From: Candidatus Falkowbacteria bacterium
GTDB lineage: Bacteria > Patescibacteriota > Patescibacteriia > Patescibacteriales > UBA12075
Length of the DNA: 64,000 nucleotides
Direction of reading: 5' to 3'
NCBI GenBank assembly: GCA_043801965.1
Contig: JAZDLN010000051.1
Coordinates: forward strand, 19,720 to 83,719
Both the position numbers and the translations under genes were made by a program. The notes below the pieces were generated by a model. The model searched no databases, was not told the origin of the DNA, and saw only the letters and a list, made by a program, of their open reading frames with translations. Numbering within the stretch: the first letter of the stretch is position 1; every line of letters begins with the position of its first letter. This document shows positions 3,492-61,706 of the stretch, piece by piece.

Positions 3492-4499
3492 TTAAACCAA
3501 TCTTTTCCTCCCCATATAATCAACCAGATCAACCATCCTGTTCGAATATCCCCATTCGTTATCGTACCAGGCGATCACTTTCACTAAATTGCCGCCGACC
3601 ACTTTCGTGAGGCCAAGGTCTATTATCGAACTGGCCGGGTTGCCGATTATATCGGTCGATACCAAGGGCGCGTCCGTAACCTCCAGAATACCTTTAAGGC
3701 GGGCGCTTCGGGCAGCTTTTTTAAAGCAGGCGTTTATTTTCTTTTCGTCAGTTTTTTTCCGGGTAACGAAAACGATATCGCAAAGCGATCCCACCGGGGT
3801 CGGAACGCGAACCGACATCCCGTCGAATTTTCCCCTTAAGGCCGGGATGGTTTCGGCCGCGGCGATAGCGGCTCCGGTCGTCGTCGGCACCATGTTTATG
3901 CCCGCGGCCCTGGCCCGCCTTAAATCCTTATGCGGGCCGTCCACTATCCGCTGGTCCGCGGTATAGGAGTGGATCGTGGTCATGATCGCTTTTTCAATTC
4001 CGAATTCCCGCCTGATAACGTCGGTCGCCGGGGCCAGGCAGTTGGTCGTACAGGAGGCGTTAGACAGGATCCGGTCGGTTTTTTTTATTTTATCTTCGTT
4101 CACTCCCATGACGATCGTTTTTATATTGCCTTTGGCGGGCGCGCTTATGATCACTTTTTTGGCGCCGGCCTTTAGGTGGAGCCCCGCTCCGTCCTTGTCC
4201 CTGAAAAAACCGGTCGATTCGATCACTACGTCCACTTCCATTTCTCTCCAAGGCAGTTCCCCCGGATCTTTGGCGGCAAAAACCGGATATTTCCTGTTAT
4301 TTACGATCAGGGCGTCTTTTTTATATCCGACTTTCCCCGCAAAACGGCCATATACCGAATCGTACGCGAGCAAATGCGCCAGAGTGGCCGTATCGGTCAG
4401 ATCGTTTATGCCGACGATTTTATGCGCCGACTTTTTACTTAAAACGGCCTTGAATACGGCCCGGCCGATTCTGCCGAAACCATTAATAGCGATATTCAT
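3492..4499 (-). CDS. gap: Glyceraldehyde-3-phosphate dehydrogenase.
   Basis: NGFGRIGR NAD-binding motif and catalytic ASCTTNCLAP motif. Start taken at MNIAINGFGRIGR (ATG 4499) rather than the track's upstream M. Confidence 0.9.
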   Translation of the reverse strand: MNIAINGFGRIGRAVFKAVLSKKSAHKIVGINDLTDTATLAHLLAYDSVYGRFAGKVGYKKDALIVNNRKYPVFAAKDPGELPWREMEVDVVIESTGFFRDKDGAGLHLKAGAKKVIISAPAKGNIKTIVMGVNEDKIKKTDRILSNASCTTNCLAPATDVIRREFGIEKAIMTTIHSYTADQRIVDGPHKDLRRARAAGINMVPTTTGAAIAAAETIPALRGKFDGMSVRVPTPVGSLCDIVFVTRKKTDEKKINACFKKAARSARLKGILEVTDAPLVSTDIIGNPASSIIDLGLTKVVGGNLVKVIAWYDNEWGYSNRMVDLVDYMGRKRLV

Positions 4500-4624
4500 A
4501 GTTTTTGTAATTTTAATTAATAATTCCAAAAAGATAAAATCTAAAAGCTAAAATATAAAAGCTAAAAGCTAAAAGCTATTAATATTATATCACAAATTAC
4601 GAAAAACAAAAAAGCCCCTTTTTT

Positions 4625-5899: not shown

Positions 5900-6802
5900 T
5901 TATTTATCCTTCTTGTTTTTTTTCTTGTCCCTGTTCAAATCGACCTCGATCACGGTAACGGCGCCGTTCTCTCCGGCGAACTCCACGTCGACCGATTGCT
6001 TTAAGGTGTGATGGCCGACGATCACTCCTCTTTTGCCGTCAACGTTGACTTTGGTGCCGATCGGCGGCATGCTGCCGCGGAGATGTTCATAACCGGCCTG
6101 TTCGTAGGCCAGACAGCACATAAGCCTGCCGCAGATCCCCGATATCCGGTCCGAGCCGCGGTGAGAGCACTGCTGCAATTCAGCCATCTCGCTCGTGATC
6201 GAAACCAGATTGTTAAGATGGCCGCGGCAGCAAAGTTCCTGGCCGCAATGCCCGATATCACCGGTTACCCGGGCCTCGTCGCGTATGCCTATCTGCTGCA
6301 GCCTTATCGTCCGGCCGAAATGCCTGGTCAATTCTTTGACCAATTCACGGAAATCGACCCGGCCATCGGCGATAAAGGCGAAAGTGATGCGCGAACCATC
6401 GAAAGCGAAATGCACGTCGATGAATTTCATGGGGAGATTCTGCTTATCCTTAAGATCTTTGGCGTAATCCAGAGCCTTCTTCTTTTCGGCTAAATTAGGT
6501 ACTTTTTCCATATCCCGGTCGGTGGCCACCCGCAAAACCGGTTTTATTTCCTTGCTTTCGTTTGCTTCCGCGGTCTCCTCCGGATTACCGGGAGTCTCAG
6601 TATTATCGGCGGCTATGTTCGTAACGGATTTTTTTTCCTCTTCTACGTTCGCCTCTCCTTCGACAAAACCCACCACCTCGCCGATCTCTATTCCCATATC
6701 GGTTCTGACCACGACTTTATCGCCTTCCGACAAATTCAGGTCGTTAGCGGAAAAATTATAAACCTTGTCCCAGGGAGTGAACTGTATTTGAGCTAATTTC
6801 AT
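5900..6802 (-). CDS. PSP1 C-terminal domain protein (RicT/YaaT-like).
   Basis: Cys-rich PSP1 core: IGHCGQELCCRGHL ... ICGRLMCCLAYEQ. Confidence 0.7.
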   Translation of the reverse strand: MKLAQIQFTPWDKVYNFSANDLNLSEGDKVVVRTDMGIEIGEVVGFVEGEANVEEEKKSVTNIAADNTETPGNPEETAEANESKEIKPVLRVATDRDMEKVPNLAEKKKALDYAKDLKDKQNLPMKFIDVHFAFDGSRITFAFIADGRVDFRELVKELTRHFGRTIRLQQIGIRDEARVTGDIGHCGQELCCRGHLNNLVSITSEMAELQQCSHRGSDRISGICGRLMCCLAYEQAGYEHLRGSMPPIGTKVNVDGKRGVIVGHHTLKQSVDVEFAGENGAVTVIEVDLNRDKKKNKKDK

Positions 6803-6880
6803 ATATCAAGAAACATAAAACATGAAGCATGAAACACGACATTTTTCGTGCTGCGTGTTGAGTGTTGCGTGTTATGTTTT

Positions 6881-7687
6881 TTATAAACTATACCTGACGA
6901 ATCCCGCGATCTTAACATCGCCCAAAACCTCTTCTACCTTCTTCTTGTCATCCTTGATGTACTCCTGTTTAACCAGACAGACATCCTCGTAATATTTATT
7001 GATCTTGCCTTCGAGGATCTTTTCTATGATATTCGCCGGCTTGCCTTCTTTGGCGAGCTGTTCGCGGTAAATTTCCATCTCCTTACCGACCTCCGCCGCC
7101 GGTACGTCTTCCGGCCGAAGGTATTTAGGATTCGCGGCCGCGATCTGCATGGCCATGTCATAAGCCAGATCGCCTTTTCCCGCCTCTTCCAACGACACTA
7201 AAACGCCGATCCGTCCGCCCGAATGGCTGTAAGCGGCGATAGTCCCGGCCGAAGACAGGACCGAGAACCGCTTGATGCCCATTTTCTCCCCGACGGTACC
7301 GGACAAGCCGTCCAGAACCTCTTTGACCGTTCCGCCCGTCAGCGGCAAGTTTTCCAGCTCTTCCAGGCTTTGCGGTTTCTTTTCTTTAATGACCTCTAAA
7401 ATATCATCTGATAATTTAAGAAATTTTTCGTTAAGGGCCACGAAATCGGTTTCGGCGTTCACCTCAAGGATATAGCCTTCGTTGCCGGCTTCGTTCACGC
7501 CCAATTTTATCACGCCCTCGGAGGCTTCGCGTCCGCTTCGTTTCGCCGCCTTGGCTATGCCTTTCTTGCGCAGTATATCCACCGCCTTATCTAAATCGTC
7601 ACCGGCTTCCGTCAGGGCGTTCTTGCAATCGACCATTCCGGCGCCGGTTTGCTCGCGTAATTGTTTGATTATTTCTAAGCTGCTCAT
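6881..7687 (-). CDS. tsf: Elongation factor Ts.
   Basis: N-terminal UBA-like IKQLREQTGAGMVDCKNAL and dimerisation-domain motifs. Immediately downstream of rpsB in the canonical rpsB-tsf arrangement. Confidence 0.9.
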   Translation of the reverse strand: MSSLEIIKQLREQTGAGMVDCKNALTEAGDDLDKAVDILRKKGIAKAAKRSGREASEGVIKLGVNEAGNEGYILEVNAETDFVALNEKFLKLSDDILEVIKEKKPQSLEELENLPLTGGTVKEVLDGLSGTVGEKMGIKRFSVLSSAGTIAAYSHSGGRIGVLVSLEEAGKGDLAYDMAMQIAAANPKYLRPEDVPAAEVGKEMEIYREQLAKEGKPANIIEKILEGKINKYYEDVCLVKQEYIKDDKKKVEEVLGDVKIAGFVRYSL

Positions 7688-10789: not shown

Positions 10790-12099
10790 ATAATAACCCC
10801 GCCCCCTAAAACCTCGTCCCCGTCATAAAACACGACCGATTGCCCCGGTGTTACCGCCCGCTGCGGTTCCTTGAGTTTAACGTTATATTCCTTAACTCCG
10901 CCCTCAAGCGCCACCGGAACACCCCTCCCCCTCCCACCCCGAATGATGGGCGGGTGCCGGAGCGGAGCGGAGGCGGGAGGGGTATTGGGGAGAGGTAGAG
11001 ACGCGACTTCGCATCCCACCGCCTTATGCCGGTACCGGATCACGGCCTCGCATTTTAAAGGCATCTCCGGCTCGAATCCGGAAACCCAATTGATTTCAGA
11101 GACGATAAAATTATCGCGGAAAAGCGCCGGGTCGTTTGCGTCGGATACGACGTATAAAGTATTGGTTTTATAGTCCGTGCCCGCGACATAATAAGGCCCG
11201 GTGCCGCCAATCTCGACTCCCCGCCTCTGCCCGAGCGTATAAAGCGGCAAACCCTGATGCTGTCCGATTACTTTGCCCGCACCCTCTCGCGCCGCCGGAA
11301 CACCCCTCCCCGTCCCTCCCCTAATTAGGGGAGGGTGCTGAAGCGGAGCGGAGGCAGGAGGGGTGCTAGATGCAAGAGCCACTATCGGCCCGGGCTCCAT
11401 TTTAAGATATTTTTTCAGATACTCGTTATGCTCCAAAATCTTCCCCTCGCTGTTTAAAAAACAAACATCCTGGCTTTCGCCCGTTAAATGCGGCAATCCC
11501 GCCTCCGCCGCTATTTTCCTGATTTCATCCTTAGTGTATTCTCCGAGCGGAAACAGTATTTTTTTCAGTTGATCCTGCGTTAAAGTATATAAAAAATACG
11601 ATTGGTCTTTATTAGTATCTATACCCCTAAACAAAGCACATAATTCATTTTTCATGACATAATGCCCGGTAGAGAGATAATCCGCGCCTAATTCGTCAGC
11701 CACGCGTAAAAGCTCCCCGAATTTAATAAGCCGGTTGCACCTAACGCATGGATTTGGCGTTATCCCCTCTTGATAACTTTTTAAAAAATAATCTATTACC
11801 TCTTTCCGGAATCTGACGGTCAGATTGACCGGATAGAATCTTATGCCGAGCTTCTTAGCCACCTGCCGGGCCGCCGCCTCGCTTTTATCGTTCGGAAACC
11901 CCAGGCGCATGAATATGCCGGTTACGTCATAACCCTCTTTACGCAACAAAAAAGCCGCCGTGGAAGAATCTACCCCCCCGGACAAGGCTACAACAACACG
12001 AGATTTTTTTCCCGCACCGCCAGCTTGCCCCGCATAATCCCGAAGGGATTTGTGCGGGGACGTGGCAACTATTACTTTTTTATTTTTTGCATTTTTCAT
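10744..12099 (-). CDS. mnmA: tRNA-specific 2-thiouridylase MnmA. It carries two in-frame repeat-element insertions and an element-derived C-terminal tail.
   Basis: PP-loop SGGVDSS and motifs CVRCNRLIKF and DYLSTGHY. The 451 aa length exceeds the usual roughly 360 aa because of insertions TPPASAPLQHPPLIRGGTGRGVPAAREG and TPPASAPLRHPPIIRGGRGRGVPVALEG. Confidence 0.9.
   Translation of the reverse strand: MKNAKNKKVIVATSPHKSLRDYAGQAGGAGKKSRVVVALSGGVDSSTAAFLLRKEGYDVTGIFMRLGFPNDKSEAAARQVAKKLGIRFYPVNLTVRFRKEVIDYFLKSYQEGITPNPCVRCNRLIKFGELLRVADELGADYLSTGHYVMKNELCALFRGIDTNKDQSYFLYTLTQDQLKKILFPLGEYTKDEIRKIAAEAGLPHLTGESQDVCFLNSEGKILEHNEYLKKYLKMEPGPIVALASSTPPASAPLQHPPLIRGGTGRGVPAAREGAGKVIGQHQGLPLYTLGQRRGVEIGGTGPYYVAGTDYKTNTLYVVSDANDPALFRDNFIVSEINWVSGFEPEMPLKCEAVIRYRHKAVGCEVASLPLPNTPPASAPLRHPPIIRGGRGRGVPVALEGGVKEYNVKLKEPQRAVTPGQSVVFYDGDEVLGGGVIMPSPDSLRSSPSPAI
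10920..10984. repeat. In-frame nested-palindromic element copy (diverged) inside mnmA.
   Basis: cacccctccccctcccaccccgaatgatgggcgggtgccggagcggagcggaggcgggaggggta. Outer IR cacccctcc / ggaggggt(g/a). Confidence 0.65.
11301..11365. repeat. In-frame nested-palindromic element copy inside mnmA.
   Basis: cacccctccccgtccctcccctaattaggggagggtgctgaagcggagcggaggcaggaggggtg. Inner perfect palindrome ccctcccctaattaggggaggg. Confidence 0.75.
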
Positions 12100-12114
12100 C
12101 TTTAGTAAACTTCA

Positions 12115-12161
12115 CTCTCCCGTGAGCGACGCCAGCCGGGGGAGAGGGGCGGGGGTGAGGG
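12115..12161. repeat. GC-rich palindromic element with GGGGGTGAGGG tail, just upstream of mnmA.
   Basis: ctctcccgtgagcgacgccagccgggggagaggggcgggggtgaggg. Confidence 0.5.
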
Positions 12162-12188
12162 AAAAACAAAAAGCGCGCCAGCGCCTTC

Positions 12189-12225
12189 GTGCTAAATACT
12201 AAATACTATATGCTAAATACTTAAA
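12189..12225. repeat. TACTAAATAC direct-repeat element supplying the stop codon of the 12213-13613 gene.
   Basis: gctaaatactaaatactatatgctaaatactt. On the coding (minus) strand, repeated GTATTTAGT units place TAG in all three frames. Confidence 0.55.
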
Positions 12226-13613
12226 ACCAGTATATCCGATAAGCCGCCTTCCAGGGCGTGGAACTTAAAGTATATCAAGCTGGAAACGAATAAAATTACC
12301 AGAAAACTCTGCAGTATCACGTGCTTATGCTGGATCTCGTATCGGACAATGATGTTGACGATCAGGGCCATGATCAAAAGAGTAAGAATGGCGACAAAGA
12401 CGTAATTTACCGCCCTCGCTATACCGGAGGCGCGCATGGTCCTGGCGTCAGCCGTATTCTTGAACACCAGCGGTTCGCTCGGAATATTCTTTTCCAGGGC
12501 GCTGTTCGGGCTTGCCGGATCAGCCATCGCCAATTTTTGTCCATCCGCGGCCGGAACGGTTTCCGGCAATACCGGCGGGATAGCCGGCAATATTTCCGGT
12601 TCGCTCATGGTTTTCTCTTCAGCCGTTGGATTGGGGCTAACTTTATCTGCCGGTTTAGACTCAACGGTTTCCGTTTTCGGCGCCGGTTTTATGGCCGGTT
12701 TAACGACGGCGACTGCTGGCGCCGGCTTCTCTTCTTCTTTCTTGTTGTCATCGGCCAAAACGGCTACCGTTTCCGGCGTGGCCGGTTTAACATCGGCAGG
12801 AGAAGAAGGGGCGGGCTCGCCCGCCGGAGCTTTAGCGTAGGCGGGTCTGGTCGTACCGAAAAGCTGGACCAAAACATTGGTTTGTTTGCCGTTCATGGTA
12901 CCGGTTACCATCGCCAGTCCGACATCGGCGTAACGATCGTTTAAAATATTGTGCTTATGCGAGGGCGAGTTCATTAAAGCCCGGTGGGCCGAATCGGCGG
13001 AGGTAAAATTCATGGCTAAGTTTTCGCCCACGAACAGATATTTATATTGGCCGCGGTCGATCCAATCCCAGGGTTTTTTGCCGTCCGGCGAATGGTGCGC
13101 GAAATAACCTTTGGCGATCATGTCTTCGGCTTTCTCGTGCGCCGCGATATTGAGTACTAGGTTAGAATTAACGGTTCCCAGTCCCGCTTCCGCGCGGGCG
13201 CCATTGATCAAAGTCAGTATTTCTTCGGTCATGTTCTCGGTCATGCGTCCTTCCTCCGGGTAAACCAGGAACAAATATCCGACCAGGGATATTTTTATGA
13301 CGACCAGAAGCACAATGATCAAGGCCAGCGAATGGGCGCGGAGTATTTTCGGCTTGTGGCTGTTGCCGTCGTGGGGAATAAAATAATCATAAAATAACCG
13401 GCTCGAATCGGAGCAGTATTTACTGAACGTTTCCCGGCCGGTCCTAAGTTCGTTTATCTCCCTTTCTTCGCTCCGAAAAAAATCTTTCAGGTTTTGCCTG
13501 ATATCCTGATATTTTTTCTGTCCGTCCTGCCAAAAAAAGGCTACTAACTTATAAAGTAAATAGGCTAATATTAAATATAAAATTCCTCTTTTTTTATTGT
13601 TTTTCTGCGTCAT
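12213..13613 (-). CDS. CAP/SCP/PR1-like domain protein with a Pro/Ala-rich linker and membrane anchors.
   Basis: GENLAMNF ... HRALMNSPSHKHNILN resembles CAP-domain motifs. N- and C-terminal hydrophobic segments. Confidence 0.55.
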   Translation of the reverse strand: MTQKNNKKRGILYLILAYLLYKLVAFFWQDGQKKYQDIRQNLKDFFRSEEREINELRTGRETFSKYCSDSSRLFYDYFIPHDGNSHKPKILRAHSLALIIVLLVVIKISLVGYLFLVYPEEGRMTENMTEEILTLINGARAEAGLGTVNSNLVLNIAAHEKAEDMIAKGYFAHHSPDGKKPWDWIDRGQYKYLFVGENLAMNFTSADSAHRALMNSPSHKHNILNDRYADVGLAMVTGTMNGKQTNVLVQLFGTTRPAYAKAPAGEPAPSSPADVKPATPETVAVLADDNKKEEEKPAPAVAVVKPAIKPAPKTETVESKPADKVSPNPTAEEKTMSEPEILPAIPPVLPETVPAADGQKLAMADPASPNSALEKNIPSEPLVFKNTADARTMRASGIARAVNYVFVAILTLLIMALIVNIIVRYEIQHKHVILQSFLVILFVSSLIYFKFHALEGGLSDILVLSI

Positions 13614-13817: not shown

Positions 13818-13869
13818 CTCCCCTCTCCCGCGGCGCCGCAGCCGCGGGAGAGGGGCTGGGGGTGAGGGC
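13818..13869. repeat. GC-rich palindromic element.
   Basis: ctcccctctcccgcggcgccgcagccgcgggagaggggctgggggtgagggc. Confidence 0.55.
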
Positions 13870-14782: not shown

Positions 14783-14861
14783 GTGAAATCCTTTCCTGAA
14801 AAAATTAATATTTAAAGATCGTATGTTTAAAAATATATAACGATTAGTCTTCCGTCCTGCT

Positions 14862-14884
14862 TAATACTAAATACTAATTTTCTA
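14862..14884. repeat. Short copy of the TACTAAATAC element at the stop of the sortase gene.
   Basis: ttaatactaaatactaattttcta overlapping stop TAG (14874-14876). Confidence 0.45.
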
Positions 14885-15539
14885 AAAGCTCCGCGATCAC
14901 GACCAGCCTCTGCGCGGTCGAGTAGATCGGCGTGCAGGTGAACATGGTCAGGGTCGGTTTTTCGGTCGGATTCATAATAGAAAGATCCGTGGGTTCCACT
15001 ACTTTTATTTCTTTGATACGGTAAAAATAATCCTTTTCTTTATATATCACGGAAACAATATCCCCGATAACCAATTTATCAAACAGGAAAAAGGTCAGAT
15101 TGTTGGGCGGCAGATATTTAAAACGATGCCCGGTAATGACGGTGTTGCCCCCTTTATCCGGGGTCGAACTTTCCGGCACGCGCCAGGAGCCGCGGGACAA
15201 GCCGTAATCGGCGGATTTAGCTTCCACGATCGGCGCGTTTACGCCGATCTTGGTGATTATTATCCGGTTCGGGGATACCGCGTACTCGGCTTCGGGTAGC
15301 TTGCTCACGATCTTGGCTGTTTTCTCTTTGACGATAACCTCGTCCTGATGGACGGCCGCCGCCTCCGTGCTCGTACCCGTAACTCCGGCCAGAGACGCCT
15401 CCCTTCTTTGCGTCATCCTGTATTTTACGGAAGGATAGAGCGGCAGGGCGAATATATAAACTATCACGAGGATAGCCAAAAATTCCATTGTTAAAACAAC
15501 CGCCTTTAAGACTTTTCCTTTTATCGCTTTTTTCTCCAT
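14874..15539 (-). CDS. Sortase family transpeptidase.
   Basis: N-terminal TM anchor, catalytic His (VITGHRF) and TLTMFTCTP (TLxTC Cys motif). Immediately downstream of a giant surface protein gene. Confidence 0.8.
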   Translation of the reverse strand: MEKKAIKGKVLKAVVLTMEFLAILVIVYIFALPLYPSVKYRMTQRREASLAGVTGTSTEAAAVHQDEVIVKEKTAKIVSKLPEAEYAVSPNRIIITKIGVNAPIVEAKSADYGLSRGSWRVPESSTPDKGGNTVITGHRFKYLPPNNLTFFLFDKLVIGDIVSVIYKEKDYFYRIKEIKVVEPTDLSIMNPTEKPTLTMFTCTPIYSTAQRLVVIAELLEN

Positions 15540-18746: not shown

Positions 18747-18828
18747 ATTTTAGTAGGTTAAAAGTAAGGCGAGAAGTAATAATTGATATTGGCATAAAAA
18801 CAAAACGCTCTCTTCAATCAAATAACCA

Positions 18829-19047: not shown

Positions 19048-19698
19048 CTATCCCCAGAACCCCAGTATCTTTAAAATTCCCGCCTTGATAGCGCCGATGA
19101 AACCGGACCAGACAGCCGCGATTCCCCGGTTATCATCCGATCGATCGTCTTCCGCGGCGTTGCCGGCATCATCCGCGCAATCGCTTTCTTCGAGTGCGCA
19201 CAGCCCGTTCCCGGCCGGTTCTTCCGGCTCTTCCCAAAGCTCGCCCAAGACCGGCTCAGCAATACCCCTCCCCGTCCCTCCCCTAATTAGGGGAGGGTGC
19301 TGGAGCGAAGCGGAGGCGGGAGGGGTGTCTGAAATTTCCGCCTCCGCTTTATCGCTATCGGCGTTAACCCGGTTCTCTATTTTTAATTGAACGCTGTCTT
19401 CCGTTTCTTTCTCTATCTTTACATCAGTCACCTTTGTTCCGTTTATTTCGGTCTCTATCTCGATCTCTCCGCGCGTTTTCCCCTCGACAACGGCGCCGTT
19501 TTTCGCCGTATTGCCGCCGCTTGAGGCGGATGATTTTATATTATTGGTTATCTTTGCGCCCCCGGAATCGTCATAATAATAAACCTCGTCATATTCGGCC
19601 AGCAAATCATCGAGGTTAAAGGCCCGCGTCCCGGCCGGCAGAAACAGCATCGACGCTATGATAATATAATTAATTTTTTTAAAATATTTTACGGACAT
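19048..19698 (-). CDS. Secreted acidic hypothetical protein containing an in-frame palindromic-element insertion.
   Basis: Signal peptide. Internal DTPPASASLQHPPLIRGGTGRGIAEP segment encoded by the element at 19264-19327. Confidence 0.5.
   Translation of the reverse strand: MSVKYFKKINYIIIASMLFLPAGTRAFNLDDLLAEYDEVYYYDDSGGAKITNNIKSSASSGGNTAKNGAVVEGKTRGEIEIETEINGTKVTDVKIEKETEDSVQLKIENRVNADSDKAEAEISDTPPASASLQHPPLIRGGTGRGIAEPVLGELWEEPEEPAGNGLCALEESDCADDAGNAAEDDRSDDNRGIAAVWSGFIGAIKAGILKILGFWG
19264..19327. repeat. In-frame nested-palindromic element copy.
   Basis: tacccctccccgtccctcccctaattaggggagggtgctggagcgaagcggaggcgggaggggtg. Confidence 0.75.
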
Positions 19699-40949: not shown

Positions 40950-42395
40950 CTAAACGGCCTTCCGTCCCCGGATTATCGCCAACGGAGTCCTGAATAAAAT
41001 AGCCAGATCAATGAGCAGGGACCAGTTCTCGATATAATAGGTGTCAAGTTTTACCTCTTCTTCGAACGAGAGATCGCTCCGGCCCGAGATCTGGGCCAGG
41101 CCGGTTATGCCGGGTTTAATTGTCATAACCTTCTTGTGGCGAGCCTCATATTGCGTTACCTCCCGCGGCTGATGCGGACGCGGACCGACCAGGCTCATAT
41201 TGCCCCAAAAAACATTGAAGAACTGGGGTAATTCGTCTATGCTCCATCGGCGGATAAACCGCCCCAGGCGCGTAACGCGCGGATCATTGGCGATCTTATA
41301 GACCGGTCCTTCTTTGGTATTCTGTTCGCGGATCAACTCCTTTTCGTAATCTTCCGCCGCGCCGCTGGCGTATTCCGCGCCCGTACAGTACTGGATGAGC
41401 ATGGAACGGAATTTAAGCAGTTTGAATTTTCGGCCTGCTTGGCCGACTCTTTCGTTCATATAGAAGACCGGCCCCCGGGAATCAAGCTTTACCGCCAGCG
41501 CCGCTAAAAGAAACAAAGGACTGATTATGACAATAAGGATAACCGACCCGATAATATCGAAGATCCGCTTGATTATCCGTCCCCAGCCGTCCAGGGGCGT
41601 TTTCTTGACCTCGACGATCGGGATGCCCGCTATTTCAGTAACTTCCGTCTTCAGAACTTTGGCGCCTAAAAGATCGGCGGCATATTTAAAGGTTAGGTGA
41701 TATTCATCGGCGAAATCGTAAAGCCTTAAGGTCTCCGCCTTGCTTAAATTAGGGTCGCTCTGGATAAGCTCGTCCACATCTTTCGCCTTCAGGTATTCGA
41801 TCAATTCGTCCCGCGCCTCAAGATCGAAGCTCCTGAGCCTTTTTACGACCTCAAAACCGGAATCGCGGTTAACGGAAAATTCGTGGATAAGATTTTCCGT
41901 GGTTTTGCTGTTCCCCACCAAAACCACCTTGTGCACGCCGATACCGCTCCGGAATAAAGCGCGCTGGAGTAGCCGGACAAGGCTGCGGGCGAAACTTATA
42001 TAAATTATCGCCAATATCAAGCCGGCCAAAACTATAAAACGGGAGTCGAATAACTCCCGTCTGATGAAAATAAGCACTACAACCAGCATAAAGCCGGTAG
42101 AGCAGGCCAGGACCACGCGATAGAGCTCTTTTACGAGCTTTCTGGCGCTTCTGATATTATAAAGCCCCGCCAAGGCGAAGATTATAAGCCACAACGCCGC
42201 TACGATCGATACCGCCTTAAGATAACCGTAAAAATCAAGATTAAATATGACCGGACGGTATGTCTGGAAAAATTCGGCGTAACGTATGTAGTAAGCCGAG
42301 ATCCCCGCTAAAATTATGGCGGCGAAATCCAGGGGTACCAATAGAAACGAAAAAAATAATTCAGAACGTTTCATAATAACGAAGACGGCAGACAA
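40950..42395 (-). CDS. Polyprenyl-phosphate sugar phosphotransferase, WbaP/bacterial sugar transferase family.
   Basis: N-terminal TM bundle. C-terminal domain [22 protein letters not shown] ... DSRGPVFY ... [21 protein letters not shown]. Confidence 0.85.
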
Positions 42396-42465
42396 CAGAC
42401 GACGGAATGAATAATAAAATTTACATTCTATTTTCTGTTCACTGCTTTCTAAAATCCAATAATAT

Positions 42466-42876
42466 CAGGACGGGTTATAAGCCGGATTCTGTTCCCGTCG
42501 AATGACGGGAGATGGCCATTTATCTTGGCTTATCGTTGCCGATAAGCTCGTGCGAACCACTTTTCCCACGTGGAAGCGAAGCTTCTTTACGTGGTTTGTT
42601 CTTGCTCCAGGCAGGGTTTACCGCGAACACGCCGTTACCGGCGGTCGAAGCTTGTAGCCTTTTGACTCGAGATCAAAAAACACCAAGCGACTTTTCACTT
42701 TTCCCCCGAGGAAAGCAAAGCTTTCTTTTCGGGGTAGTATTGTCTCTGTGGCACTTTCCCTGGGGTTACCCCCGGTCGTCGTTAGCGACTGCCATGACAT
42801 CGGCATAAAACCGAAGGGAGTCCGGACTTTCCTCTCAAAGTCCTTGAGGAGTTTGAGCGGCCATCGGCCCATCCTG
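42466..42876 (-). ncRNA. rnpB: RNase P RNA (bacterial type A).
   Basis: Minus strand contains GAGGAAAGTCCGGACTCC (P4 5' strand), GTGCCACAGAGACAA, GGTAAACCCTGCCTGGAGCAAGAACAAA and ACAGAATCCGGCTTATAACC (P4 3' strand). P1 pairs CAGGATGGG with CCCGTCCTG. Track ORFs 42512-42808(+) and 42618-42935(-) are spurious. Ends approximate. Confidence 0.85.
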
Positions 42877-52935: not shown

Positions 52936-52966
52936 AACGAGCGGGAAAAATCCGCTCTTTTTTGTT
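52936..52966 (+). terminator. Rho-independent terminator after corA.
   Basis: acgagcggg-aaaaat-cccgctc followed by ttttttg. Confidence 0.55.
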
Positions 52967-52993: not shown

Positions 52994-53023
52994 GCTTAAT
53001 ACTAAATACTATATACTAAATAC
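52994..53023. repeat. TACTAAATAC direct-repeat element supplying the stop codon of dus.
   Basis: cttaatactaaatactatatactaaatactt, near-identical to 12189-12225. Confidence 0.55.
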
Positions 53024-54071
53024 TTTTCAAATACTCCCCAAACACACCCTCAATCTCCTTAAACGTATTAACGCGCACCAATTCTCTTCTTAACTCTTTC
53101 GCCCCGGATAGCCCGGCCGCGTAAGCGCAAAGCTGGCCGCGCATCTCTACTATCCCCCGCCCGCCTTTAAGGCCCTCGGCAAGCCGGGCGTGTTCTAAGG
53201 CGATTTTAAATACCGCCCGGGGAGAGCGCGCAAGGCTCTGTCCGGTGCGCACGGCCTTGAATATCCACGGCCGCCCCAAAGCGCCGCGCGCGATCCCGAC
53301 TCCGTCGGCTCCGGTTTCGGCTAATAATTCCTCAACACAACTTTTGACGTCAGCTCCCCTCGCCCGCGGCGCCGCGACACCCCTCCCCGTCCCTCCCCTA
53401 ATTAGGGGAGGGTGGCGAAGCGGAGCGGAGCTGGGAGGGGTAACGGTAACGCCAACCCCTCCATTCGCCAGAATCACGCCCCCGAAATGATCGCGGGCTT
53501 TTTTTATTATTCCTGTGTCGATCGTCCCGGCAAAACCCTGCTTTAGGGTCCGGCCGTGGATCATGATAGCGGAAATATTCAAGTCTTTAATAAATTCCAA
53601 AAAATCGATCAAACCGGTTCTGTTGACCCTGGTCCGGGTTTTGATCGAAACCGGCAAATTCGTGTTATCGATCGTGCTTTCGATTATCTTCCGCGCCAGC
53701 GGCATATTATCCATAAGTACCGCTCCCGCGCCCTGTTTGGCGACTTTCTTTACCGGACAGCCGAAGTTAATATCGATCCCGTCCGGACCGATCTTATCCG
53801 AAATTAGGCGCGCGGCCGCCGCGAAGTGATCCGGTTTCGCACCGAAAAGCTGGACTACGTACGGACGTTCTACCGGATCGAACTTAAGCATCCCTAAAGT
53901 TTTAACCGGATCATAAACCAGGGCAGTCGCGCTGGCCATCTCGGAATAAACGACGTCCGCGCCGAATTTTTTGCAAATCCGGCGCATGGCGCTGTCCGTA
54001 TAGCCCGCCATCGGCGCCAGGGCGTAGATCGGCCGTCCCCGTTTTTTTAATTTTTCCCAAAAATTACGCAT
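53016..54071 (-). CDS. dus: tRNA-dihydrouridine synthase with an in-frame repeat-element insertion.
   Basis: LAPMAGYTDSAMRRI ... DINFGCP ... GADGVGIARGALGRPWIF. Insertion TPPSSAPLRHPPLIRGGTGRGVAAPRARG splits the conserved ANGG / ADV...TGADGV region. Confidence 0.85.
   Translation of the reverse strand: MRNFWEKLKKRGRPIYALAPMAGYTDSAMRRICKKFGADVVYSEMASATALVYDPVKTLGMLKFDPVERPYVVQLFGAKPDHFAAAARLISDKIGPDGIDINFGCPVKKVAKQGAGAVLMDNMPLARKIIESTIDNTNLPVSIKTRTRVNRTGLIDFLEFIKDLNISAIMIHGRTLKQGFAGTIDTGIIKKARDHFGGVILANGGVGVTVTPPSSAPLRHPPLIRGGTGRGVAAPRARGADVKSCVEELLAETGADGVGIARGALGRPWIFKAVRTGQSLARSPRAVFKIALEHARLAEGLKGGRGIVEMRGQLCAYAAGLSGAKELRRELVRVNTFKEIEGVFGEYLKSI
53388..53441. repeat. In-frame nested-palindromic element copy inside dus.
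   Basis: cacccctccccgtccctcccctaattaggggagggtggcgaagcggagcggagctgggaggggt. Confidence 0.75.
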
Positions 54072-55205: not shown

Positions 55206-55288
55206 TCATAAAAACCGCAAAGCACCCAAACGGGTGCTTTTTAATATATTCGGAAATTTAAAGAATATTTCTATAAGCTAAAAGCTAG

Positions 55289-56674
55289 CTACTTTTTAAA
55301 AACCCTCTGTCCGTCCGGCGTATCTTCGACCGTATAGCCTGATTTTTCAATCTCATCGCGCAGACGGTCGGATTCGGCCCAATTTTTTTCTTTTCTGGCT
55401 TCTCGCCTTTCTGTTCTTAATTTTTCTACCTCTGTCGGCATGATTTCTTCCAAGATTTCAGTTATATTAAAACCGAAAACTTCATCGAATTTATTGAATG
55501 TCTTTAATTTATCTTCATTGGCGAGTTGATCGGATTTCAACATTTCCTGAGTTACCGCAAGAGCTTTCGGTAAATTTAAATCATCATTAATGGATTCTCT
55601 GAAAAACTTTTCCGCCCCCTCTATAACGGCACCCTCGCTAACTCCCAGTCCCCTTACCTGATTATATAAATGCTCTAACCCATTTTTGGCGTTAAGCATT
55701 ATTTCTTCGCTATATTCCATCGGTTTGCGGTAATGGGTCTGTAGGCAGGCGAAACGATAAACTAAGGGGTCGATCCCCTTCTTTAAAAAAGCATTATCGA
55801 GAGTCAAAAAATTATCCGCGCTCTTGGCCATCTTCTTGCCCCCGGCGATATTCAAAAACGCGCCGTGCATCCAAAAATTAAAAAACTTTTTCCCCGTGGC
55901 CGCTTCCGATTGCGCAATCTCGTTCGTGTGATGCACATTGATGTGATCGATGCCGCCGCAATGGATATCAAGTTTATCTCCCAGTAAAGCCGCGCTCATG
56001 GCCGAGCATTCGATGTGCCAGCCGGGAAAACCGACGCCCCAGGGAGAATCCCATTCCATCTGGCGTTTGGCGTCATTCGGAGAGAATTTCCAGAGAGCGA
56101 AATCCGTCGGATTTCTCTTCTCGTCGTTTTTTTCCACTCTGGCGCCCTCCTTTAAGGTTTCAAGGTCAAGATGCGATAATTTATTGTAATCGGGGAATTT
56201 AGCCGTATCGAAATAAATCCCGTCGCTTGTCTTATAGGTAAACCCCCTTGATTCAAGAATTTTAATGAGATCGATCTGTTGAATTATGTATTCGGTCGCT
56301 TTAGGCATCTCGCCGGGCATGATAATATTCAGGCGCTTAAGATCTTCCAGGAAAGCCTTAGTATAAAATTCCGCGATCTCCCAAACGCTTTTCCCTTCCC
56401 GTCGCGCGCCTTTTTCAAGTTTATCCTCGCCCATGTCCATGTCGCCCGTCAGATGCCCGACGTCGGTAATATTCATGACATGGCTGACCTTATAACCGTT
56501 ATACGTCAAAACCCGCTTCAGGATATCTTCGAAAATATAAGCCCGCAGATTGCCGATATGCGCGTAATTGTAAACCGTCGGACCGCAGGTATAAAGACCG
56601 ATCTCGCCCGGTTTTATTGGCATGAACTTCTCTTTTTTGCGCGTGAGCGTATTGTATAAAAAAATTTCCTCCAT
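55289..56674 (-). CDS. cysS: Cysteinyl-tRNA synthetase.
   Basis: HIGH motif (YNYAHIGN), KMAKS (KMSKS variant) and zinc-binding Cys/His positions. Confidence 0.95.
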
Positions 56675-59706: not shown

Positions 59707-59777
59707 ATTTTATTTATGACTCCTTGGGCTTTGTGATAAATATATTAGCATAATAATCTAAAAGCTGAAAGCTGTTT

Positions 59778-61706
59778 TTACCTTTCTTTCGGTACCTGAT
59801 AATAATTCAAGATAAATTCGGCGATTTCGGAAAAGAGGGGCGCCGTCGAAGAATCCGCCCAGGCCACGTCTTTGGGGTCGTTTAATTTTACCAGCATGAC
59901 GAATTTCGGGTCGTCGGCCGGCGCGAAGCCGATGAAAGTATGGATCGTCCGGCCCGCCTCATAGCCCTTGGTCCCGCTGCCGGCCACCTGCGCCGTGCCG
60001 GTCTTGCCGCCGACGTAATAGCCTTTTACGGCCGCTCGCGTGGAATGGCCCTCTTCGACCACCCTGACCATCATGCCGGATAAAAGCAACGAGGTCCTTT
60101 CGGAAATAACCCTTCTTACCGGCTGCGGCTGGGTCTTTATCCTTTCCCCGGCCGAGGTCACTATTTCGTTCACCACGTAAGGTTTCATCAATATGCCGCC
60201 GTTAACGACCGCCGCGTAAGCGGTTATGGTCTGGAGAGGAGTGACCGTTATTCCCTGGCCGAAAGTGGCGGTCGCGACTTCCACCGGCCTGATGACGTCG
60301 CGCTCCAGGTTAACGATATTGCCGCCTCCTTCGCCCGGCAGCTCGATTCCGGTTTTTTGCCCGAAACCGAATTTTTTGACGTAATCCGCGAAAACCTCCG
60401 GGCCGGTTCTCTGCATAACGTGGATCGAGCCGGTATTTAAGGAAAGTTCCAGAACGGTAATCATGTCGACCGTGCCGTGGCCGCCGAAAGTATCGAAGTC
60501 GGAATTTTTAATCGGTTTTGACCAGCCGGGTATCTTTATCGAACCCTTGTCGTTATAGGTACTTTCCGGCGTGACTTTACCCTGGTCTATTCCGGCCGAC
60601 ATCGTAAAAATCTTAAAGATCGAACCGGGTTCGTATTGATCGAACACGGCGGGATTATTATAAATACCGATATTGTCAACCTTTCCGTAATTATTGGGGT
60701 CATAATCCGGCCAGGAACACATCGCGATGATAGCGCCGGTTTTCGGCTCCATAACTATGACGGTTCCGCCGTCGGCGCCGTGCCGAAGGGCGGCGGCGTT
60801 AAGTTTTTGGCAGGCGTTGAACTGGATCGAGCGATTGATCGTCAAGATCAAATCGCTGCCGTTTTTAGGTTCGTTGAATTCCCGGTCATTCACGATGATC
60901 AGGCTGCCGTTACCCGATCTTTCCGCCTTGATCGATCCCGGGGCGCCGGTCAATTCCTCGTTGAAAAAATTCTCGAGACCGTATCGTCCGATTTTTCCGG
61001 AATCGTCGAAACCCACGAAACCGAGCAGATGGGAACCGATCGAAAATTCCGGATAATAACGGTAAGACTCCATTATGTAATCTATACCCAAGCCGTGAAG
61101 CTCTTCGATATAAGGGTCGAGCGTTTCTTTTTCGACCTTTGAGCGAATCGGTTCGTAGGGATCGTTTTCTTTTGATAATTTATCCAGATAAGCGCCAATT
61201 ACTGATTTTTTTCTGATCTCCAATTCCAGTTCCCTTTTGATCACCCTGAACTCTTCCCGGTTTTTAATATCGGCGGCCGCTATGCCGAGGCCATCGGAGG
61301 AGGTTGCCGAAAAATAAGGGTCTTTCTTAAGCATCTCGTCGACCTCATCCTCTACGTTTTTCCGGTCGAATATTTCATATAAACGATCGGCCGCCTCCGC
61401 GGGACTCTTAACGTCTTTAGGTATGGCGTAAACCAGGGCGAAATCCTTATTCGTGGCCACCGGGTAAAAATCCTTCCCGTCCGGGACCGGGCTGTTCTGG
61501 ATATAGATTTCCCCGCGCGACGGCTGCAGCTTATTATATACCTGATGCTGGTCGGAAGCCAAGGCGACGTAAAGATCGTTCTTCGAAACCTGAAGTCCAT
61601 ACAGACGCAGCAGGATCGATCCGGCCAATAAAAAAATAACCGTCATGACCAGATTAAGACGATTACTGTTGTCGCTTTTTTTTCGGTTGTATTTGCTGGA
61701 AATCAT
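59778..61706 (-). CDS. ftsI: Class B penicillin-binding protein / peptidoglycan D,D-transpeptidase.
   Basis: N-terminal TM. SxxK (SIFK), SxN (SLN) and KTG (KTGTA) active-site motifs. Confidence 0.85.
   Translation of the reverse strand: MISSKYNRKKSDNSNRLNLVMTVIFLLAGSILLRLYGLQVSKNDLYVALASDQHQVYNKLQPSRGEIYIQNSPVPDGKDFYPVATNKDFALVYAIPKDVKSPAEAADRLYEIFDRKNVEDEVDEMLKKDPYFSATSSDGLGIAAADIKNREEFRVIKRELELEIRKKSVIGAYLDKLSKENDPYEPIRSKVEKETLDPYIEELHGLGIDYIMESYRYYPEFSIGSHLLGFVGFDDSGKIGRYGLENFFNEELTGAPGSIKAERSGNGSLIIVNDREFNEPKNGSDLILTINRSIQFNACQKLNAAALRHGADGGTVIVMEPKTGAIIAMCSWPDYDPNNYGKVDNIGIYNNPAVFDQYEPGSIFKIFTMSAGIDQGKVTPESTYNDKGSIKIPGWSKPIKNSDFDTFGGHGTVDMITVLELSLNTGSIHVMQRTGPEVFADYVKKFGFGQKTGIELPGEGGGNIVNLERDVIRPVEVATATFGQGITVTPLQTITAYAAVVNGGILMKPYVVNEIVTSAGERIKTQPQPVRRVISERTSLLLSGMMVRVVEEGHSTRAAVKGYYVGGKTGTAQVAGSGTKGYEAGRTIHTFIGFAPADDPKFVMLVKLNDPKDVAWADSSTAPLFSEIAEFILNYYQVPKER

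Follow-up and report, generated by a model that had tools for sequence, protein, structure and literature searches.

Why should three unrelated genes of one genome end in nearly the same letters? The question is raised by a 64,000-nucleotide stretch of a Candidatus Falkowbacteria bacterium (contig JAZDLN010000051.1; hereafter the window, the 64-kb scope of the recurrence and feature counts), in which near-identical short sequences lie over the stop codons of three minus-strand genes, those of a CAP-domain protein, a sortase and Dus. An initial annotation described them as a mobile stop-cassette or a conserved motif of the 3' untranslated region (3'UTR) that supplies stop codons in all three frames. 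The sequences are tandem arrays of a 7-nucleotide (nt) unit, TAGTATT on the coding strand. They are probably best explained as a heptanucleotide simple-sequence repeat (SSR) of UTR spacers, one of several heptamer families in the genome, that would be driven by slippage and occasionally copied or seeded.

Three heptanucleotide arrays at gene stops

The near-identical sequences are present at three sites, and in each case the first TAG on the coding strand is the stop codon of the gene, as had been claimed. The positions are as follows.

12190..12224, minus strand: copy 1, tgctaaatactaaatactatatgctaaatacttaa, a (TAGTATT)n array of about 5 units and 35 nt
12213-12215, minus strand: first TAG of copy 1, stop of the CAP-domain gene 12213..13613
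14860..14878, minus strand: copy 2, cttaatactaaatactaat, a 2-unit remnant or short array of 19 nt
14874-14876, minus strand: first TAG of copy 2, stop of the sortase gene
52995..53025, minus strand: copy 3, cttaatactaaatactatatactaaatactt, about 4 units and 31 nt
53016-53018, minus strand: first TAG of copy 3, stop of the Dus gene

All three copies lie on the same strand, with the heptanucleotide reading TACTAAA on the plus strand and TAGTATT on the coding strand. The coding strand of copy 1 reads AAGTATT TAGCATA TAGTATT TAGTATT TAGCA, that of copy 2 AAT TAGTATT TAGTATT AAGC and that of copy 3 AAGTATT TAGTATA TAGTATT TAGTATT AAGC. The initial annotation had seen a 9-mer recurring at odd spacings; Tandem Repeats Finder instead gives head-to-tail 7-nt units at all three sites (period 7 at 12192-12221, 14863-14877 and 52998-53024, with 4.3, 2.1 and 3.9 copies), and repeat-finding in the window puts the sites into one family (D15). 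The overlap with gene ends is confirmed by the open reading frames (ORFs) 12213..13613, 14874..15539 and 53016..54071, all on the minus strand, which match the Pfam families CAP, Sortase and Dus, respectively. At most 12 nt of any copy overlap coding sequence, and the remainder is 3'UTR or spacer.

Chance recurrence of AT-rich low-complexity sequence is a negligible candidate for such a pattern. The 18-mer GCTTAATACTAAATACTA, allowing up to 2 mismatches, has 3 matches against 0.00 expected in 100 shuffles, which refutes chance and upholds the earlier view that the recurrence exceeds it; furthermore, the three copies share one strand, all lie at stops, and an orthologous array is kept in a sister species. 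What can be said for chance comes from shorter words, as a 10-mer with at most 1 mismatch is only modestly enriched (10 matches versus 3.75 expected, with 10 reached in 2 of 100 shuffles) and lone TACTAAA 7-mers are about as frequent as expected when the arrays are excluded. Copy 2 by itself, with 2 units, is too short to count as longer than chance.

Since each unit holds a single TAG and its length of 7 nt is not divisible by 3, TAG falls into frames 0, 1 and 2 within 21 nt. The claim of stops in every frame holds for copies 1 and 3 and fails for copy 2, where two frames are covered; it is arithmetic of the 7-nt period, and the case for its being selected is weak. It is very unlikely that the arrays are selected fail-safe terminators, kept to stop read-through or frameshifted ribosomes in every frame. 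Copies 1 and 3 would suit that role, with TAG in all three frames within 21 nt, but copy 2 would not, the arrays are dispensable in sister species, and a broad study of bacteria detected no selection for extra stop codons 3' of genes (PMC6764699).

By themselves the arrays show no significant RNA folding (z = 0.02 and -0.48), with weak A-U pairing only in the fold at z = 0.02. No GC stem is found inside the TAGTATT element in the fold, so the element itself is not an intrinsic terminator. The Rfam search gave no family at the arrays, and direct reading found no inverted termini at the three copies. Unit changes 3' of the first TAG cannot alter the protein, and phase variation by a shift of frame or spacing therefore does not apply to the three TAGTATT copies.

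Gain, loss and substitution among relatives

Both Dus and the CAP protein have 100% identical counterparts in a Candidatus Falkowbacteria MAG (metagenome-assembled genome). Orthologous sites were compared in Falkowbacteria RIFOXYB2_FULL_47_14 and in related metagenome contigs (including L120 and L124). At the CAP ortholog (90% amino acid identity) the array lies at the same site with the same TAG stop, no indel and no change in the number of TAGTATT units, the C-termini being VLSM in the relative and VLSI in the window. However, 9 of the 37 nt of this array differ (24%), whereas the flanking terminator is about 90% identical. The array is absent from the sortase orthologs (92% and 79% identity), in which the spacer is 32 nt compared with 91 nt in the window and the protein tails read AELIEDTKQN and AELIEDED compared with AELLEN. 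It is also absent from the Dus orthologs (79% and 75%; L120 and L124), whose ends are of equal length and read GEYLHRL rather than the GEYLKSI of the window; L124 has a single TAGTATT 17 nt past its Dus stop.

A second heptamer family of the window, (AGCTTTT)n, permits the same comparison.

55271..55291, minus strand: (AGCTTTT)n array at CysS, TAG CTAGCTT TTAGCTT ATAG, abutting the stop TAG 55289-55291
59758..59773, minus strand: (AGCTTTT)n array of 2 units at PBP, AGCTTTC AGCTTTT AG, 4 nt past the TAA stop of 59778..61706
4529..4578, minus strand: (AGCTTTT)n array of 7 degenerate units at GAPDH, at the start of the 5'UTR
4584-4592, minus strand: extended -10 box TGaTATAAT, directly upstream of the GAPDH array

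The C-terminus FKK of CysS is identical in the window and the relatives; L120 has a TAA stop and no array, and L124 has a TAG stop followed 8 nt later by an array with TTTTAGCTTATAG, which the window array has too. At PBP, L120 carries GCTTTTAGCTTTTAG (4113-4127) 5 nt past the stop of the same gene. The GAPDH 5'UTR holds 8 perfect units in a relative and 7 degenerate ones in the window, a difference of exactly one 7-nt indel. Since the extended -10 box directly precedes this array, the GAPDH mRNA would begin with the repeat, and it is conceivable that unit number might affect expression. Among the arrays of the window, only this one is so placed that its unit number could do so.

Gain, loss, unit-number change and fast substitution are the pattern of a simple-sequence repeat. 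Of the proposal of a conserved 3'UTR motif, the location stands, in the 3'UTR and over the stops; the conservation does not, given that in sister species the array is missing from two of the three sites and, at the shared one, has diverged faster than its flanks. The host proteins show no important truncation relative to their orthologs; replacement at the array sites is confined to the final 1-4 residues of variable tails.

Hairpins that resemble terminators accompany several arrays, and all of those listed also appear in the minimum-free-energy fold.

12169..12188, minus strand: terminator-like hairpin and T tract directly 3' of copy 1, GAAGGCGCTGGCGCGCTTTT TGTTTTTCCC
52939..52957, bidirectional: terminator-like hairpin 38 nt 3' of copy 3, in the spacer of the convergent pair CorA and Dus
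55219..55240, minus strand: terminator-like hairpin 3' of the CysS array

They lie 1-38 nt 3' of the arrays and separate from them, and the hairpin at 52939..52957 is conserved in the relative L120. With hairpins close behind them, copy 1 and the CysS array form the first 20-35 nt of their 3'UTRs. In the broad sample described below, hairpins of this kind beside arrays (4 of 50, 11 of 85 and 5 of 84) are too few for a conclusion, and the association is clear in this window only.

Arrays in other genomes and their orientation

Arrays of TACTAAA/TAGTATT are found across phyla. A scan of one genome per species (query CTAAATACTANATNCTAAATAC) gave at least 119 loci and a metagenome scan (query TAGTATTTAGTATTWAGCR) at least 120; both returned mostly unrelated taxa, and they served as two independent samples for position statistics. 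The genome matches listed include Bacteroidota, Patescibacteria, Cyanobacteria, Gammaproteobacteria, Planctomycetota, Atribacterota, Firmicutes and two methanogen MAGs; the source MAG is not among the genome matches listed, nor the source lineage among the metagenome matches listed. Arrays of the genome scan hold 3 to about 20 units, with an overall range of 2 to about 20 across loci. They often lie beside other heptamer arrays or form inverted pairs, and across the other genomes they share no flanks. In the genome-scan loci together with the window (about 0.89 Mb), tandem repeats of period 7 number 401 arrays, whereas period 6 has 55 and period 8 has 79. Only 2 array-ORF pairings, from 161 arrays, place an array inside an ORF elsewhere. 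A search of the literature for the TACTAAA repeat string gave no relevant paper.

At some loci (L068, L109, L113 and L114, from one Clostridia MAG, and L047 and L115, from Pleurocapsa) the TACTAAA array lies within a longer multicopy element with conserved flanks, for example ...ggatttTctcctccactaacc-[array]-gaattctgatttgtcgc...gcgacaaatcagaat. To judge from these flanks, the array may in some lineages travel inside a larger repeat.

These data bear on the mobile stop-cassette of the initial annotation, that is, a discrete copy-and-paste unit of about 33 nt that would insert at the 3' ends of genes with stop codons of its own. Such a unit would account for the likeness of the copies: copies 1 and 3 match at all but 2 of 33 aligned positions and have the TATA variant unit and the unit order in common (pattern AAGTATTTAG[Y]ATATAGTATTTAGTATT[W]AGC), copies 2 and 3 share 18 identical nt including the non-periodic end TATTAAGC (AAGC), and copy 1 resembles copy 3 far more than it does its ortholog. 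Copies 2 and 3, missing in the sister species, would be recent gains. Nevertheless, the cassette is quite unlikely, for several reasons. (i) Inverted termini are absent, and at the sortase and Dus sites whole spacers differ from those of the relatives, so that no clean empty site, junction or target duplication can be defined. (ii) The copies are of unequal length (35, 19 and 31 nt), and changes involve whole units. (iii) More than 230 loci in other genomes are unrelated, and the flanks of their arrays share nothing. (iv) Alternating TAGTATA and TAGTATT units arise independently in unrelated taxa, such as Atribacterota, so the variant pattern of copies 1 and 3 may be convergent. (v) No candidate for the enzyme is known. 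Some copying between loci is possible, given how close the Dus and CAP copies are.

Placement in the two samples follows an orientation rule. Genes were represented by ORFs of at least 90 amino acids, a method under which stop positions are exact, and all loci had been selected for carrying the repeat. In the genome sample, 32 of 61 arrays with the TTTAGTA strand in sense lie within 10 nt past a stop, compared with 7 of 68 with the TACTAAA strand in sense (Fisher p = 2.6e-7), and the median distances past the stop are 9 and 86.5 nt. The metagenome sample gave 19 of 35 versus 4 of 33 (Fisher p = 3e-4). Within 10 nt before a start, the TACTAAA sense prevails, with 26 of 67 versus 1 of 35 in the genome sample and 13 of 41 versus 1 of 39 in the metagenome sample. 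The rule also holds with ORFs of at least 150 amino acids. In 16 stop-proximal arrays, the window copies included, a TAG of the array is the stop of the gene. The copies of the window are typical of the TAGTATT repeat in their placement, and the expectation that position relative to gene ends is non-random is borne out in an orientation-specific form across many taxa, as measured with ORF proxies.

The same polarity is seen in other heptamers. Within 10 nt of a stop, their sense strand has more G than C in 39 arrays versus 10 (p = 4e-5), and in arrays near a stop that do not overlap it the ratio is 19 to 2. Period-8 arrays near stops were divided 6 to 6, a small number, each control period class having 4 to 16 stop-proximal arrays. 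At tRNA genes, all 3 arrays within 15 nt downstream are G-sense and one array 6 nt upstream is C-sense, which apparently extends the gene-end polarity of heptamer arrays beyond protein genes. The 3 downstream cases are TAGTATT-type arrays 3-15 nt past tRNA-Ile and tRNA-Ala 3' ends in Sphingobacterium rRNA-operon spacers (L040 and L057).

Several causes of the polarity were considered and rejected. Replication orientation does not predict it, as the G strand is on the majority gene strand in 61 of 139 cases and on the G-rich strand of the locus in 81 of 149. Nor does the background composition of 3' trailers (A.33, C.17, G.19 and T.31 in array-free trailers), and neither A/T skew (19 versus 26) nor purine skew is significant as an orientation rule. 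No polar decay of units at one array end was seen (0.344 versus 0.340). A need for an in-frame stop is no explanation, because TACTAAA carries stops on both strands. Seeding by the native stop is not apparent either, since by eye the stops outside arrays keep no constant phase to the array TAGs. Rho loading sites (C>G RNA) were set aside by reasoning, as cyanobacteria carry such arrays and are not known to have Rho.

For a fail-safe role the orientation data are mixed. The sense unit contains a stop triplet in 76% of heptamer arrays of other units lying 1-10 nt past a stop, compared with 52% of those more than 40 nt away (p = 0.02), a partial correlate that would favour it. However, TACTAAA provides stops (TAA, TAG) in all frames of both strands and yet only one orientation hugs gene stops, and the same polarity is found after untranslated tRNA genes.

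An alternative that takes the transcript into account is a functional 3'UTR RNA element, in which the arrays would be a UAG-N4 platform for a hypothetical oligomeric RNA-binding protein (HutP- or TRAP-like) or a cluster of endoribonuclease sites, and would steer mRNA 3'-end processing or decay. In the Bacillus subtilis hut operon, the HutP site is made up of two UAG triads (UAG-N4-UAG-N4-UAG) within a terminator/antiterminator of the 5' leader, and it needs the hutP gene. Likewise, in the coding-strand RNA of copies 1 and 3 the UAG triplets are spaced exactly 4 nt apart, with the pattern (TAG N4)x2 + TAG at 12192-12215 and 53002-53018 on the minus strand; copy 2 has 2 UAGs only. Unlike the leader switch, the TAGTATT arrays lie 3' of the coding sequence and have no alternative structure. 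As to endoribonucleases, the RNase E-type motif is RN/WUU, and each TAGTATT unit holds a GU/AUU that fits it. Placement that depends on the transcript strand in two independent samples also suits an RNA element, and the polarity past tRNA genes (3 of 3) suits RNA processing better than translation. Such an element is nonetheless unlikely. The polarity recurs in unrelated heptamers without UAG (39 versus 10), so a sequence-specific binder is not its general cause, and the A/T skew that an RN/WUU site needs does not predict orientation. Furthermore, sequence change between orthologs is faster in the array than in the flanks, orthologous 3'UTRs of Dus and CysS have no array although their terminators are intact, and unit number ranges from 2 to about 20.

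A broader possibility, to which a similarly small chance is given, is that heptamer arrays including TAGTATT may have a polarity fixed by the boundaries of genes or transcripts to which they are anchored, rather than being passive products of slippage. The 5' end of the G strand would be set on the gene 3' end and the C strand would run into the start codon, and a conserved, strand-specific process would build or select the arrays. Within a genome they would be copied from locus to locus, a course to which copies 1-3 point.

Against a heptanucleotide simple-sequence repeat as the explanation, three points weigh. The resemblance of copy 3 to each of the other two is better fitted by locus-to-locus copying than by independent slippage. 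The strong orientation rule amounts to non-neutral placement, which pure slippage does not predict. To these are added the caveats on the rule itself, the choice of loci for carrying the repeat and the use of ORF proxies for genes in other genomes. The simple-sequence repeat is still the probable explanation, and its mechanism may be pictured as follows. Slipped-strand mispairing would create arrays and change their length. Copying through short homology would spread them to new sites, for example via the AGTATTT that the native Dus codons GAG TAT TTR (Glu-Tyr-Leu) already hold. An array would halt translation in any frame, so that a lost spacer or converted final codons would be tolerated; the last 1-4 residues and the native stop would be replaced and the protein would not be lengthened. 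The element would be mostly near-neutral 3'UTR filler, with orientation and position filtered by some constraint tied to gene or transcript boundaries and not by a dedicated stop function.

Heptanucleotide repeats in this window and in other bacteria

The TAGTATT arrays are dispersed heptanucleotide SSRs of the long SSR (LSSR) or STRR-like kind, being tandem, above chance, non-coding, variable and present at many loci. Heptamers are the commonest class of long SSR in bacteria and have been attributed to polymerase slippage (Mrazek 2007, as cited in PMC4679880 and PMC4692102). The LSSRs of Mrazek, Guo & Shah (2007) are alike in their tandem 7-nt units, mostly intergenic location and unit number that varies between relatives; as represented in the citing papers, that survey includes neither Patescibacteria nor TAGTATT, and reports neither stop overlap nor an orientation rule. 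Rehm et al. (2015; PMC4692102) described GGGAATC repeats in Xanthomonas and GGGGA(C/T)T repeats in Nostoc. The GGGAATC repeats are about 90% intergenic, typically have about 4 units, and differ in length or presence between sister species; the ORF 5' of the G strand is 28 nt away and the downstream ORF 160 nt (PMC4692102). Their polarity is that of TAGTATT, but the GGGAATC and GGGGA(C/T)T units are G-rich and capable of forming G-quadruplexes, whereas TAGTATT is not, and no stop overlap is described for them.

TAACTGA is a direct repeat of marine Beggiatoaceae, Cyanobacteria and Bacteroidetes (MacGregor 2015; PMC4679880). It occurs in 2-6 copies at many loci, is patchy across phyla, has stops in all frames of one orientation, and its arrays may overlap the end of a coding sequence by up to 18 nt (PMC4679880). 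Both are dispersed heptamers, and TAACTGA is mixed with other heptamer arrays in some genomes. TAACTGA lies mostly a few nt upstream of starts, whereas the TAGTATT copies of the window lie at stops; start-proximal TACTAAA occurs in other genomes. Heptamers near starts and promoters have also been described in Nostoc (bioRxiv 10.1101/2022.06.06.494920).

The STRR sequences of heterocystous cyanobacteria include three tandem heptanucleotides in Calothrix PCC 7601, according to the account cited in PMC4692102. They too are tandemly amplified and dispersed in intergenic DNA, but have other units, belong to another phylum and usually form longer arrays. Their details were reportedly given by Mazel and colleagues in 1990. 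In Geobacter metallireducens, elements of four or five tandem heptanucleotides are known (GGACCGG in 49 copies, MTYCTGA at 15/16 sites; PMC2700814), and a regulatory role has been proposed for them, not shown. With about 4-5 units they are near copies 1 and 3 in size; unlike these, they are GC-rich and lie within genes as well, and no relation to stop codons is reported. The phase-variable 7-bp repeats upstream of Haemophilus influenzae hmw1A and hmw2A (PMC8262952, PMC12721329) are likewise heptanucleotide SSRs of an untranslated region whose unit number varies by slippage, but they lie between promoter and start and tune expression, a layout that only the GAPDH (AGCTTTT)7 array resembles.

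Within the window, 64 kb hold 3 TAGTATT and 3 AGCTTTT sites, in addition to CGATTKN and other arrays. The CGATTKN units directly follow TAG stops in two further minus-strand genes, 19048..19698 and 40950..42395 (GGATTGA CGATTTC CGATTGT and GGATTTT TGATTGC CGATTAA), and a relative has GATTGAC x2.6 over the MnmA stop. At 6810-6873, between genes 6881..7687 and 5900..6802, two inverted heptamer arrays follow each other on the coding strand, AACACGC-type and then ATGTTTC-type units, for which an imperfect G-U-rich hairpin is possible; the inverted design (ACAAGAA / TTGTATC) is also found in spacers of relatives. Single TACTAAA units in minus-strand sense lie at 12101-12107 and 18749-18755, 1 and 3 nt before the ATG of MnmA and of a 1062-amino-acid surface protein. 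Their orientation is the start-hugging one of other genomes, and roughly 0.03-0.15 would be expected by chance. Over all intergenic DNA of the window, lag-7 autocorrelation shows a small bump only (0.305, versus 0.288 at lag 6 and 0.298 at lag 8). The 54 ORF proxies of the window end in TAA (35), TAG (12) and TGA (7), and arrays of the TAGTATT or AGCTTTT families provide or adjoin 4 of these 12 TAG stops.

The window also contains a dispersed, GC-rich element, about 96 nt long and with CCCTCCCCTAATTAGGGGAGGG as its palindromic core, at 10888-10983, 11269-11364, 19231-19326 and 53346-53441, with related pieces at 12120-12165 and 13820-13855. Two copies lie in frame within the MnmA coding sequence, one within that of Dus and one within ORF 19048..19698, where the element adds ...TPP(A/S)SAPL(R/Q)HPP(L/I)IRGG(T/R)GRGV... 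to the proteins; the Dus ortholog at 79% identity has the element and that at 75% does not. It looks like selfish DNA tolerated inside genes, reminiscent of the palindromic elements reportedly found in Rickettsia. A bacterial RNase P RNA of class A (Rfam, 206.7 bits) lies at 42462-42876 on the minus strand. The minus strand carries nearly all of the long ORFs, and GC skew on the plus strand stays negative over the whole window, which is probably part of a single replichore.

The finding itself is ordinary, as the class has been known since 1990 and was surveyed in 2007, and stops in all frames are arithmetic. What is added is the documentation of such repeats in a genome of the Patescibacteria (Candidate Phyla Radiation, CPR) and an example of an array taking over the last codons and the stop of a gene without harm. 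Annotators should expect repeat-derived C-terminal residues (such as a final ...SI) and array-driven differences in stop codons between close strains. The orientation rule is reproducible across phyla and had previously only been hinted at, by one paper and for one Xanthomonas unit. If the arrays were polar elements, they would point to templated synthesis or repair that runs directionally where transcription units begin or end, or to a general function of RNA 3' or 5' ends. The gene-end polarity is a concrete and testable clue to the role of long SSRs in bacteria and to their preference for 7 nt, and it speaks against purely neutral slippage.

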